Positions 24,001-27,000 of a stretch of DNA of 64,000 bases are shown piece by piece (position 1 is the first letter of the stretch; every line of letters starts with the position of its first letter). Position numbers: made by a program. Source of the stretch: an uncultured cyanobacterium (GTDB lineage Bacteria > Cyanobacteriota > Cyanobacteriia > Cyanobacteriales > Cyanobacteriaceae); assembly GCA_963749915.1 (NCBI GenBank), contig CAVVOP010000008.1:256001-320000 (forward strand), given 5' to 3'.

Positions 24001-27000
24001 TGATTGATCTTCGGTAATTCGTTCAGGGTTGAAATCAGACATTAAAGAAGCAGATTGAGTCATCAGAGAGTAATTAATAAATTAATAATTGATCATTGAC
24101 AATTGATAATTGATAAATAACTTTTATTGGTTGTCTTTTGCCTTACTCAATTGGTCATTATATTATACAATTCATTGTCTAAAGAAAAAAATTAGATTGC
24201 TCTATGGTCAAAATTTATGTTTAAATAGCAATTATTATGGATTTAAAAGCTCTTATTCGTGATATACCTGATTTTCCTCAATCTGGCATTATTTTTCGAG
24301 ATATAACAACTTTACTCAAAAATCCCCAAGGTTTAAAGTATGTCATTGATAGTTTAGCGGTAGAGACGGAAAAACTAGATATCTTACCTGATTATATTGT
24401 CGGGATTGAGTCAAGGGGCTTTATTTTTGCTCCTGCTTTAGCCTATCATCTGGATGCTGGTTTTGTGCCAGTGCGTAAAAAAGGTAAATTACCAGCGGAG
24501 GTTTTTGCCATTGAATATGATTTAGAATATGGAACAGATATTCTCGAAATTCACCAAGATTCTTTTACGACAGGTGCGAAAGTAATGATTGTGGATGATG
24601 TAATCGCCACGGGAGGCACGGCTAAAGCCACGGCAGATTTACTAACTCAAATCGGTTGTGATATTGTGGCTTGTGGTTTCATTGTGGAATTAGAAGGTTT
24701 ACAGGGGAGACAGAAATTGCCTGATGTACCCATGGTTACACTAGTTAAGTATAGTTAGATTTAACAAGGGAGACCAGATATTAACCCCATACCTATTTTA
24801 TCCCTACTAACTGCCATCGCATTGATACTAAATGGGTTCTATACGGTTCGTATCATCAAGATTAATGTATCGTATTGTTACGTTATCGGGTAGTTTTTTT
24901 TGAAATTTGTCTATTATGGGGTTGAACAGGCGGGCCGCGAGGTCCCATAAAAATTAAAACAATGATAAGCTTATGCTGAGCAAAATCTGTGGTGTGATAG
25001 ACCAAGGGGATCTTCCACAAGCACCTTATAAAAACTTAGTGTCTGATTCTAAAAGTAGAGAAACAATTAAATTACCTTCAGATCTAATTTCTGAAAATTC
25101 TATTTTTGAATTAGAGGAACCAATAGATAAGCCTCTAAAAGGAATAGATAATTCTCCAAAAAACCGTCAAACAGTACGTATAAATGAGTTAGACGATTTA
25201 TTACATGGAGGCTTGTTGAGTGATACTTACGGAGTGGATCAAAATCACAGACCTGGTCATAAACCCCCTGGTGGTAATGCTTCATCACGCAGTAGTTATC
25301 CAATAGATTTTTTTACTGTTGCTCTTCACGAGATCGGCCATTCATTGGGTTTGTCACATGGGGATCCCAAGGATGGTAGAAAAGCTATTATGGATCCATT
25401 TTATAGTGGGCCAGAAACTGGTCTATATAAAAATGATAAACAAAGAATTAAGGCTTTATATAAAAATCTAAATGGTACAGGTAATCGCTGGAATGAAAAG
25501 AATGATCGAAATCCTGGCAATGGTGTTCTCGAGGTGACCTACAGTTTTATGCCTAATGGAACAAGATTAGATCAAGGAAGAAACAATTGGTATAAAAAGT
25601 TTAATGCTTTATTCCCAAGGAAAGAATGGTTAAATATTGTACAACGTGTATTTCAAGAATGGGAAGCCGCCATTGAGGAAGGCGGAATCAAAATAGATTT
25701 TATAAAGGTTTCGGATAATGGAGTACAATTTAACGCTCGAGGGAAAGGAAGTCAAGGAGACATTCGCATTGGCTCTCATCCTTTTGACGGACCATTAGGA
25801 GTATTAGCTCATGGTTACTATCCACCACCAAATGGGAATACAGCGGCCGGTGACGTTCATTTTGATTCATCGGAACACTGGGTTTAATCATCAAAATGAT
25901 CGATGGCGTTTATGGGAAAATGATTTAAATCGCTATAGCTACTGACTTTGTTTATATTGATTTTATCAGGAGAGCTTTACTTATGTCTCGAACTCCTCTT
26001 CCCTATCCTTGTCACAACACATAATTATTCAAATCCCTCGCAGTATTGAGTGGCATATTAAGTGGCAAACAGTGCATCATCTATGATCAGGAACAACAGC
26101 GGCCATGAGGGCGAGACTAACTAATGAGAGATGGAATTGGAACAACTTGGCACTCTATCCCACACTTCTTTGATACACGACCAGAAAAGCTAGTCTAACT
26201 TTTCACGGCATCTTTTTCGGTTGACAGGTGTTAGGTGTTAGGGGTTGGGTGTTAGGATTAGGGATTGAGGATAAGCTTTAATAGTTGAACAGTCAAAAAA
26301 AACACTTAGAAACTGATGGGAATACAATCCTATAGAGACTTAAAGGTTTGGCAAACAGGCATGGATTTAGCAGAAGAATGCTACTTAGTTACTCGCAATT
26401 TCCCCAAAGAAGAACTTTACGGGTTAATTTCTCAGATTCGTCGAGCATCAGCCTCTATTCCCGCCAATGTCGCTGAGGGGCATAGTCGAAAAACCCGAAA
26501 AGAATATATACAGTTTTTATACATAGCACAAGGCTCTCTTAAAGAATTAGAAACTCATCTTTTATTGTCGAAAAGGGTAAAGTTAGGAGAGGGGAAAGTC
26601 ATTGATTCTCTTTTAAATAGATGTGAATCCCTCGGAAGATTATTATCAGCATTGATTCGTGCCCTCGAAAACAAAAACTGAATTTTCCCTATCACCCAAC
26701 CCCTAACACCCAAACCCTTTCTCAGGGAAAAGATACCGTGAAAAGTCAGAAAAGCTAGTGGGGCTCAATTATGGATTTAATCATCATTACCCGTTTATTT
26801 ATAGCCTTAGTCTTAGGTTTAATTATTGGTTTAGAAAGAGGTTGGACTAGTCGAAAAACTCCCCCAGAATCAGGTAGTGGTGGTTTGAGAAATTTTGGCT
26901 TGGTGGGATTATTCGGTGGTGTAGCAGCTTTATTAGCAGAGCATTGGGGCAATGGTGTTCTGGCGGCTATTTTTTTAGGACTATCAATTTTGGTAAGTAC

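Follow-up and report, generated by a model that had tools for sequence, protein, structure and literature searches.

A recently active 555-bp mobile insertion cassette of a cyanobacterium carries a four-helix-bundle gene of the rRNA intervening-sequence type

Introduction

The locus described here raises the question of how a gene of the rRNA intervening sequence (IVS) type comes to lie, without a transposase, between the ends of a transposon, which enzyme moves it and whether its protein takes part in the movement. The locus lies within a window of 64,000 nucleotides (the whole stretch of DNA that was analysed) from an uncultured cyanobacterium. MIC231, to which PMC2266710 refers, denotes the mobile insertion cassettes (MICs) of IS231, an element of the IS4 family in Bacillus cereus, and Avd, a relative of the four-helix-bundle protein, is the cofactor of a reverse transcriptase.

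Structure and copies of the cassette

The mobile element occupies positions 26195-26749 of the window, is 555 bp long with sharp edges and reads CTAACTTTTCACGGCATCT...AGATACCGTGAAAAGTCAG. An earlier note on this DNA was right about the sharp ends and the target duplication but let the element begin at 26194, one base early. Its parts are as follows.

26185..26194, no strand: left copy of the target duplication, aaaagctagt, by direct reading; single copy in the empty allele in contigs from runs X3 and X2
26195..26749, + strand: the whole non-autonomous mobile insertion cassette of IS50 type, 555 bp; 12 genomic copies, of which 10 are identical
26195..26213, + strand: left 19-bp terminal inverted repeat, CTAACTTTTCACGGCATCT; 18 of 19 bases as in the left end of the insertion sequence (IS) on contig C20, CTGACTTTTCACGGCATCT
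26226..26270, + strand: upstream purine-rich heptad array, 5' arm of the stem, from a repeat search; predicted folds pair it with 26687-26718
26316..26681, + strand: gene of the 121-aa four-helix-bundle protein, PF05635 / TIGR02436, S23p type, by profile matches
26687..26718, + strand: downstream C-rich heptad array, 3' arm of the stem, complementary to 26226-26270 by repeat search and folds
26731..26749, - strand: right 19-bp terminal inverted repeat, reverse complement CTGACTTTTCACGGTATCT, by direct reading
26750..26759, no strand: right copy of the target duplication, aaaagctagt, by direct reading

The 121-aa PF05635 gene is the only open reading frame (ORF) within the cassette with a family match, and a transposase is absent. 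Each end shares 18 of its 19 bases with the left end of the C20 IS, which is the correspondence of ends that marks a MIC. The units of the upstream array read AGGTGTT, AGGTGTT, AGGGGTT, GGGTGTT and so on in a repeat search of the element.

A BLAST search with the element against the whole genome returned 12 full-length copies, ten of which have one and the same sequence. The window copy is one base off the others (position 290, G>A), which leads to a G57S exchange relative to the other ten intact genes, and the 558-bp copy on C34 carries a 2-nt insertion that disrupts the twelfth gene, so that 11 genes are intact; the search and the alignment of the copies thereby bear out the counts given before. 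Target duplications, earlier noted for those copies whose flanks had been read, flank eight of the 12 (six of 10 bp, two of 9 bp) and are missing from the other four, which sit among other repeats. Such duplications are described as about 10 bp long for the IS4 family and 8-9 bp for the IS50 subgroup, and those found here are thus of the family-typical length that characterises a MIC.

Three copies split genes, namely those of a PLD_Helicase, a DDE_Tnp_1 transposase and a DDE_5 transposase. The first of these cases, on C10, had been recognised earlier, and a match to the PADLOC PLD_Helicase model puts the break precisely at position 178 of the profile. The two 23S genes (each 2784 nt, with the whole model covered) contain none of the 12 copies, in keeping with what had been said of the two rRNA operons.

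The cassette resembles bacterial MITEs in being short, non-autonomous, multicopy and mostly intergenic, with terminal inverted repeats and target duplications, but, unlike them, has a protein gene that is intact and conserved. Alongside it the genome contains true MITEs that share its ends: four gene-less elements of 125-189 bp share the ends alone and not the interior of the cassette, and two of the four have duplications. Only three such derivatives had been counted previously, C8:789405-789593 having been overlooked.

Occupied and empty sites

Evidence for movement also comes from sites that are occupied in one source of DNA and empty in another. Contig L031, from genome G041, holds an identical cassette flanked by a duplicated ctgagatgat, and the same site is empty in the present genome, where C8:438399-438412 carries one uninterrupted copy of ctgagatgat; this pair derives from a single contig. 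Conversely, the insertion site in the window is empty in contigs from runs X3 and X2, which belong to two different studies. In runs X1 and X3 the cassette is covered about 10-13 times as deeply as its flanks, and in contigs of the public runs loose ends at the cassette termini carry flanks from outside the 12 known sites of the genome. In genomes of the same genus no empty sites were recovered because the flanks are too diverged, and only the gene itself matched, at 67-69%. G041 was considered as a close relative overall and rejected, as for three other copies the flanks match at only 66-74%; those of the window copy have no match in it. Given the target duplications, the identical copies and the precise empty sites in other data, the element is a recently active mobile insertion cassette, as had been proposed.

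The heptad-repeat bracket

The long internal inverted repeat noticed earlier is present, and the MFE and centroid folds of the cassette agree on a terminal stem of about 60 bp (z -3.9). The repeat is not a transposon feature: such repeats bracket PF05635 genes in three phyla. At a threshold of 30 bits, a complementary bracket of period 7 was found at 49 of 89 PF05635 loci and at 1 of 333 controls (22/30, 11/30 and 16/29 in the three locus sets versus 1/105, 0/117 and 0/111), the other 40 loci remaining below the threshold. The best period was 7 in 24/25, 19/23 and 19/21 arms.

Most PF05635 genes are not enclosed by transposon ends and still keep the repeat bracket. Two further inverted-repeat element families carry PF05635 modules, one with ends ACTGAYGTTACGCA (at least 10 copies in G015) and the other with ends GGCTCTTCGAC (8-bp duplications in G006). 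Among 30 PF05635 loci from the taxonomic order of this cyanobacterium, any of the three transposon ends was present at one and the bracket at about 25. The bracket architecture belongs to the gene module itself and not to the cassette. A 2.7-kb unit with ACTGAGGTTACGCA-like ends was tried as the autonomous IS of the second end family and discarded, since it encodes a histidine kinase and a response regulator and no transposase.

A literature search for a general account of this bracket at PF05635 genes led only to the 23S rRNA IVS of Coxiella, where heptamers precede the S23p ORF and the first repeat is the site of RNase III cleavage, as demonstrated in vitro for this stem arrangement (PMC4990558). 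The ORF-bearing 23S IVSs of Coxiella, Leptospira and Brucella encode proteins of the same S23p/PF05635 family, have their ORF between complementary termini and share upstream tandem heptamers with the cassette (PMC4990558). In predicted folds the ORF of the cassette is likewise enclosed by stem-forming complementary termini. Unlike the IVSs, which are located in 23S helix 9, 25 or 45, the cassette lies outside rRNA genes, both 23S genes being uninterrupted, and it has transposon ends and duplications, which are unreported for IVSs. The link to rRNA IVSs drawn in the earlier note holds at the level of architecture, in the heptad stem around the ORF, and is plausible as such; no cassette was seen in an rRNA gene.

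The Coxiella case also bears on what the bracket is for. It could act as a DNA-level foldback, maintained by gene conversion or for hairpin-dependent mobility, and not as an RNA processing stem, a reading that we consider rather unlikely but to which we give appreciable weight. Mismatches between the arms on the sense strand show no excess of G.U over A.C (74 vs 81, p 0.63, in repeat arrays whose alignment register is ambiguous), so that the bracket could be kept at the DNA level. Transversions are common in the arms, repeat numbers differ between copies and complementarity reaches 100% over 41-51 nt, all of which would suit a foldback. Cutting of the Coxiella stem by RNase III at the first heptamer speaks for an RNA stem instead, as does a strand-specific role, suggested by the usual upstream position of the purine-rich arm on the coding strand (purines make up 76% and 60% of the upstream arms).

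The partner insertion sequence

The IS on C20 (C20:161811-163312) is a single copy of 1502 bp with ends CTGACTTTTCACG on both sides, within the IS50-subgroup size range of 1350-1550 bp. End comparison bears out the earlier view that the cassette shares its ends with this IS4/Tn5-family element and contradicts the accompanying claim that no pair of such ends lies 1-3 kb apart; the 1.5-kb pair could escape an 11-mer search because its right end matches over 13 nt only.

The C20 transposase is homologous to that of Tn5 (PDB 1MUS, E 1.5e-36), its N-terminal part matches PF14706, and the Tn5 alignment shows DTT, DRE and YTYRWHVEKYHKILK, that is, the DDE and YREK residues, in the Y-(2)-R-(3)-E-(6)-K spacing defined for the IS4 family in PMC2266710. 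Further points of likeness to IS50/Tn5 are the 19-bp ends starting with CTGAC, the length of the IS, a duplication of about 9 bp (9-10 bp here) and a stop codon inside the right end. The same 18-mer end adjoins transposase homologues at 12 loci of other cyanobacterial records.

In contrast to the single reading frame expected of its family, the C20 transposase gene has two, with a -1 shift after codon 54 at ...YEF|FAN.... The shift falls on the identical nucleotide in all eight close homologues from other genomes; in four more distant homologues the frame is unbroken. Both parts show purifying selection, with pN of 0.06-0.24 versus pS of 0.5-1.0 on either side of the shift. As the frameshift is common to the eight relatives and selection acts on both parts, it is probably programmed recoding rather than the damage assumed when the transposase was called broken; the T4-5 run at the site departs from the classical slippery heptamer X XXY YYZ. 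PMC2266710 defines the IS4 family by the absence of a frameshift, and the C20 IS thus combines an enzyme of the family with a variant gene organisation. Tn5 makes its inhibitor from an internal start codon, whereas the C20 IS has its first 54 codons in the other frame, with the shift site about where Tn5 separates transposase from inhibitor.

Another transposase of the same end specificity, absent from the draft or borne on a plasmid or phage, might move the cassette, with the C20 IS as a bystander. The assembly consists of 34 contigs, the C20 IS is single-copy and itself lacks a target duplication, in-frame relatives with the same 19-bp end occur in other cyanobacteria, for example L041, and a 74%-identical copy lies on the Pseudanabaena plasmid record L080. 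Nevertheless, we consider such a source improbable: no further IS fragment was found elsewhere in the genome, contig ends included, and the one further Tn5-like gene, on C19, does not qualify as a partner, its ends (CTATGCCTTACCCATAA) being different.

The four-helix-bundle protein as cargo

The 121-aa protein is a clear member of its family, with matches to Pfam PF05635 (E 2.5e-38, 131 bits vs a cut-off of 33.8), TIGR02436 (125 bits vs 24) and NCBIfam NF008911 (170.8 bits, cut-off 137), and to the solved pentamer PDB 2GSC (E 4.3e-21). Profile searches gave no match to a nuclease or recombinase family, and PADLOC gave none to a defence family. A consensus scan of the gene strand found neither a sigma-70-like promoter nor a terminator. 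With the Avd of diversity-generating retroelements the protein shares the four-helix-bundle fold and a distant relationship; it scores 20.1 bits in the Avd model NF033474 against a cut-off of 80 and matches PF22296 weakly, and since the cassette has no other gene it contains no reverse transcriptase.

The proposal that the cassette encodes in this protein a mobility or end-processing factor of its own, and would hence be semi-autonomous, draws on the Avd relatives that assist a reverse transcriptase, weak as the PF22296 match is, and on the occurrence of PF05635 as cargo of three unrelated inverted-repeat families. No support for a role in transposition was found, and several observations make it very unlikely. 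Short elements with the same ends and no gene exist, half of them with duplications, and the C34 copy still has a 9-bp duplication around its broken gene. Moreover, most PF05635 genes keep their bracket outside transposon ends, and the protein has 121 aa and no nuclease or recombinase match.

Least of all do we expect the cassette to be a recently dead relic whose copies merely persist after inactivation of the sole matching transposase, as the single IS copy with its two reading frames and no duplication of its own might imply: the frameshift is old and conserved with both parts under selection, and movement was very recent, to judge by ten identical copies, disrupted genes and insertion sites that differ from one natural population to another.

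A model for mobilisation

The reading that we hold with good confidence is that the cassette is a non-autonomous MIC of the IS50 (Tn5) subgroup, mobilised in trans and carrying a ready-made PF05635 module that is no transposition factor. Matching ends, duplications, insertion polymorphism and the conserved frameshift are the observed parts of the mechanism. The C20 IS, with the same ends and a Tn5-like DDE/YREK enzyme, would supply the transposase, which would reach full length only after the -1 shift at YEF|FAN. The enzyme would bind the cassette ends, excise the cassette and reinsert it through a staggered cut of 9-10 bp, thereby creating the duplications, and intramolecular events may result in adjacent deletions or inversions. 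The cargo is the standard PF05635 module, a promoter-less ORF in the loop of a long stem of complementary seven-base repeats. Upon read-through transcription the stem would become a substrate of RNase III, as in the Coxiella 23S rRNA IVS, and with its stem cut in this way the module would be portable and could be tolerated at almost any site.

MIC231 is among the closest known counterparts, as both have IS4-family ends around passenger DNA devoid of a transposase, duplications of about 10 bp and mobilisation in trans, the last being predicted for the cassette. Unlike MIC231, the cassette has IS50/Tn5-type ends, belongs to another phylum and carries a PF05635 cargo with its own long repeat stem, and its partner transposase appears to require a frameshift.

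A broader reading is offered tentatively and with more doubt than belief. PF05635 (S23p) genes everywhere may represent one kind of portable, promoter-less module, carried by any vehicle and tolerated in rRNA, whose ORF occupies the loop of a stem that RNase III cuts and that consists of complementary seven-base repeats with a phase-locked AG. The three unrelated transposon-end families found here would then be vehicles of this module, and tolerance inside rRNA would account for the origin of ORF-bearing IVSs. The pentameric protein may itself read the repeats in a TRAP-like manner, with one subunit per repeat.

Conclusions

The conserved frameshift in an IS50-type transposase contradicts the stated hallmark of the IS4 family and suggests a second route to the balance of transposase and inhibitor known from Tn5. 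The bracket common to PF05635 genes of cyanobacteria, Bacteroidota and Pseudomonadota is the first conserved cis-feature of a widespread protein family of unknown function, for which it opens concrete tests. The cassette itself offers a clean example from nature of an IVS-type gene that moves as DNA, with occupied and empty sites both known, and if the broader reading is true it would be the first such module caught moving in this form. This makes the roughly 30-year-old hypothesis that ORF-bearing rRNA IVSs began as mobile elements experimentally approachable in a non-pathogen.

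The cassette and its gene

The element described here is a genuine mobile insertion cassette, of an IS50 (Tn5)-type insertion sequence, and it has been active recently.

Features of the cassette (window coordinates)
26195-26749: mobile element of 555 bp, which starts CTAACTTTTCACGGCATCT and ends AGATACCGTGAAAAGTCAG
Immediately abutting the element on both sides: 10-mer aaaagctagt, by direct reading
26316-26681: 121-aa ORF, the sole cassette gene with a family match
26226-26270: AGGTGTT-type heptads on one side of the ORF, inside the ends
26687-26718: complement of these heptads on the other side of the ORF, inside the ends

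The kind is already known from MIC231; what is new in the present one is its subgroup, its phylum, the cargo and the organisation of the partner. In profile searches the 121-aa product matches PF05635 (23S_rRNA_IVP; E 2.5e-38) as well as TIGR02436 and NF008911, all three with scores above their cut-offs. A further match is XCC0516, a protein of solved structure (PDB 2GSC, an entry with five chains; E 4.3e-21). Against the Avd equivalog model it reaches 20.1 bits, far short of the cut-off of 80. In the protein collection, 18 contigs encode the exact consensus protein.

Copies in the genome

Twelve full-length copies, the number claimed in the earlier note, were found by BLAST across the whole genome (34 contigs, 4.69 Mb). 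Ten are identical to each other; the window copy differs by a single G>A at position 290, a glycine-to-serine change in the protein (G57S), and six differences set the copy on contig C34 apart, among them a 2-nt insertion by which the gene is disrupted. Direct target duplications flank 8 of the 12 copies (10 bp in six, 9 bp in two), and at four sites long open frames are restored when the element and one duplication are removed. Three interrupted genes could be identified from the fragments flanking the copies, two of which encode transposases (DDE_Tnp_1 and DDE_5). The third, within C10:9238-13700, combines PLDc_2 with an SNF2 helicase and matches the PADLOC PLD_Helicase model, in which the cassette splits it exactly at profile position 178, as the description of a split PLD-helicase defence gene would have it. 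It lies immediately downstream of a gene matching the PADLOC dGTPase model (E 3.5e-73), and the cassette may here have inactivated a defence locus.

The surroundings of the four copies without target duplications are rich in repeats. One of these copies, on C19, has both flanks in common with the C25 copy, with 228 nt missing beside one end, while the copy at C21:640249 borders sequence that is found 486 nt past the C26 copy, the element being in reversed orientation. We infer that these arrangements would have arisen by duplication followed by adjacent deletion or inversion of the transposase type. Another copy (C21:70430-70472) is inserted within a short CCCTAAC-type heptad tract, which implies that heptad arrays can serve as targets for its transposase. 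Genomes of other families contain truncated relatives of the cassette (78-89% identity) that share its end and arm, at L061 and at L002 (G029:C188, about 1511-1760), the latter within an apparent WD40-repeat gene.

Evidence of movement

At 98-99% identity, C8:436601-440153 has a counterpart in the public contig L031, where a cassette that agrees in every one of its 555 bases stands between flanks of ctgagatgat; at this place the genome under study has a single unbroken ctgagatgat. Contigs assembled from four sediment-metagenome runs were aligned to window 25400-27600, a comparison of contigs rather than reads that shows presence and not frequency. One contig from run X3 connects 26181 directly to 26747, omitting 565 bases, and one from run X2, which belongs to a different study, opens with the 15 bases preceding the site and resumes at 26747, so that the window's own insertion site is empty in both. 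Together with the ten identical copies and the target duplications, these empty sites bear out the recent movement that had been proposed. The depth of the cassette is about 10-13 times that of its flanks in runs X1 and X3, and loose ends at its termini lead into flanks outside the 12 known sites, with one further site captured from both sides in two runs (duplication AAAGTTAGAC).

Near the insertion site, a 104-bp segment (window 25927-26030) with AAATC as a direct repeat on either side is missing in X1 and X2 contigs (joint 25926 to 26031). Its final 36 nt are part of a repeat, about 36-59 nt long, that is dispersed over the genome in at least nine further copies.

The probable partner insertion sequence

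A genome-wide search for the 19-mer end, allowing up to 3 mismatches, gave 41 sites, of which the 12 cassettes account for 24 and four short elements for 8, the other 9 being solo. Short elements with the same ends exist as the earlier note had it, but they number four and not three. One solo site opens the probable partner insertion sequence (C20:161811-163312, 1502 bp), whose right end, in reverse complement CTGACTTTTCACGTTAAGT, matches over 13 nt and contains the stop codon. Its N-terminal ORF matches PF14706, the Tn5 DNA-binding domain, and its C-terminal 408 codons align with Tn5 transposase (E 1.5e-36), including the residues DTT, DRE and YxxRxxxExxxxxxK. It is single-copy in the assembly. 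The only other Tn5-like gene in the genome, on C19, has 30% identity and different ends; at C19:127364-128861 lies a second, single-copy Tn5-like insertion sequence whose frame of 475 codons is intact and whose inverted ends (CTATGCCTTACCCATAA) are 17 bp long. Scanning one genome per species (596 Gb) for an 18-mer of the end, with about 35 chance matches expected, matched many cyanobacterial records, and transposase homologues adjoin this end in 12 of 80 loci examined, which indicates that end and enzyme travel together.

A conserved -1 shift in the transposase

In the C20 transposase the first 54 codons finish ...KRSYEF and the remainder starts FANLKT..., one base back. The position is approximately where Tn5 divides transposase from inhibitor (residue 55/56).

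Loci of the IS50-type -1 frameshift transposase
C20:161811-163312, L145, L146, L147, L080, L151, L161, L163, L168

The identical arrangement recurs in 8 of 8 homologues of 60-80% identity, whose sources are eight genomes or records, with the shift at the same nucleotide of GAR TTT TTG CC (TTT TCG CC in one case). Four homologues at 45-50% identity have GAR TTC TTT GC, a single frame and the same 19-bp end. All ten pairs among five shifted elements give pN 0.06-0.24 against pS 0.5-1.0 on both sides of the shift, and four of the five retain 407-409 open codons downstream; by these substitution rates both parts are under purifying selection. A dead gene would neither remain open nor keep its constraint once the synonymous sites are saturated, which argues that the shift is programmed. 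A same-end IS4/Tn5 partner in single copy stands, but it is probably not just broken, as had been supposed. The shift is probably programmed, with ribosomal -1 shifting, a +2 hop or transcriptional slippage as candidate mechanisms. A passage of a family review lists "absence of frameshift" as a hallmark (PMC2266710).

The heptad bracket

The heptad arms and ends of the cassette fold as a stem of about 60 bp, in MFE and centroid alike (z -3.9). Other PF05635 genes of the genome have the same design with other heptads, such as GGGAGTA four times and its complement (C10:28451-28804). PF05635 was surveyed in 151 genomes of the same order, 101 of Bacteroidota and 201 of Pseudomonadota, and a bracket, scored as the best inverted repeat between the 220-nt flanks of the gene, was sought in the 30 best loci per search (L188-L217, L222-L254, L255-L284), less one Pseudomonadota locus whose flank was too short.

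PF05635 and its bracket in three groups (order; Bacteroidota; Pseudomonadota)
Genomes with the family: 106/151; 75/101; 29/201
Best loci per search with a bracket of at least 30 bits: 22/30; 11/30; 16/29
Control windows of the same geometry at the same loci, at least 30 bits: 1/105; 0/117; 0/111
Arms with best autocorrelation period of 7: 24/25; 19/23; 19/21

The heptad sequence varies between loci, with the complementarity of the arms retained. The upstream arm is purine-rich, and AG is the commonest dinucleotide phase-locked in the heptad (20/25 and 13/23 arms in the two phyla counted). An RNA-type wobble test on arm mismatches was neutral (G.U 74, A.C 81). As brackets of this kind stand at PF05635 loci in three phyla, the internal inverted repeat, once listed as a feature of the cassette, is a property of the gene and not of the transposon. 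The only published heptad array found for PF05635/S23p is that of the Coxiella 23S rRNA intervening sequence (IVS), for which passages of one paper place a tandem array of GACAGAT heptamers on the upstream side of the S23p ORF, the heptamers differing in number among strains and the first repeat, inside the terminal stem, being the RNase III cut site (PMC4990558).

Vehicles of the module

Transposon ends lie outside the bracket in only 1 of 30 loci from the order, and two further end families besides that of the cassette carry the PF05635 module. In the second, elements of about 800 bp have ACTGAYGTTACGCA ends and contain heptad arrays along with a PF05635 gene; another genome (G015:C1, L176-L185) has at least 10 copies of 96-98% identity, many with a truncated gene, and the present genome has a single copy (C27:123848-124374). 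An internally deleted transposase-like ORF at C32:31019-31597 bears ACTGAYGTTACGCA ends. In the third, GGCTCTTCGAC... inverted ends surround a bracketed PF05635 gene within about 520 bp; this element has two copies in G006:C1 (L186, L187; 8-bp duplications AATTTTAT and GTTTTATC), relatives in G015 and a remnant at C8:830923 of the present genome. Two genomes are outliers in the order for their PF05635 count, the present one with 27 matches and G015 with 17, where most have 1-9.

Three units of about 2.7 kb with ACTGAGGTTACGCA- or ACTTATGTTACTCA-like ends were also seen (C6:8411-11138, C8:3338-6058, C17:117050-119776). Of these only the C17 unit was read; it encodes a histidine kinase and a response regulator, so this may be a cassette of larger size whose cargo is a two-component system.

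A role of the PF05635 protein in transposition, as the cassette's own mobility factor, found no support. The proposed link to rRNA intervening sequences survives in the architecture of the module, though not as cassettes in the two 23S rRNA genes of this genome, both of which are uninterrupted. Whatever its location, the cargo is an IVS-type module, and the cassette is one way in which such a module moves as DNA.
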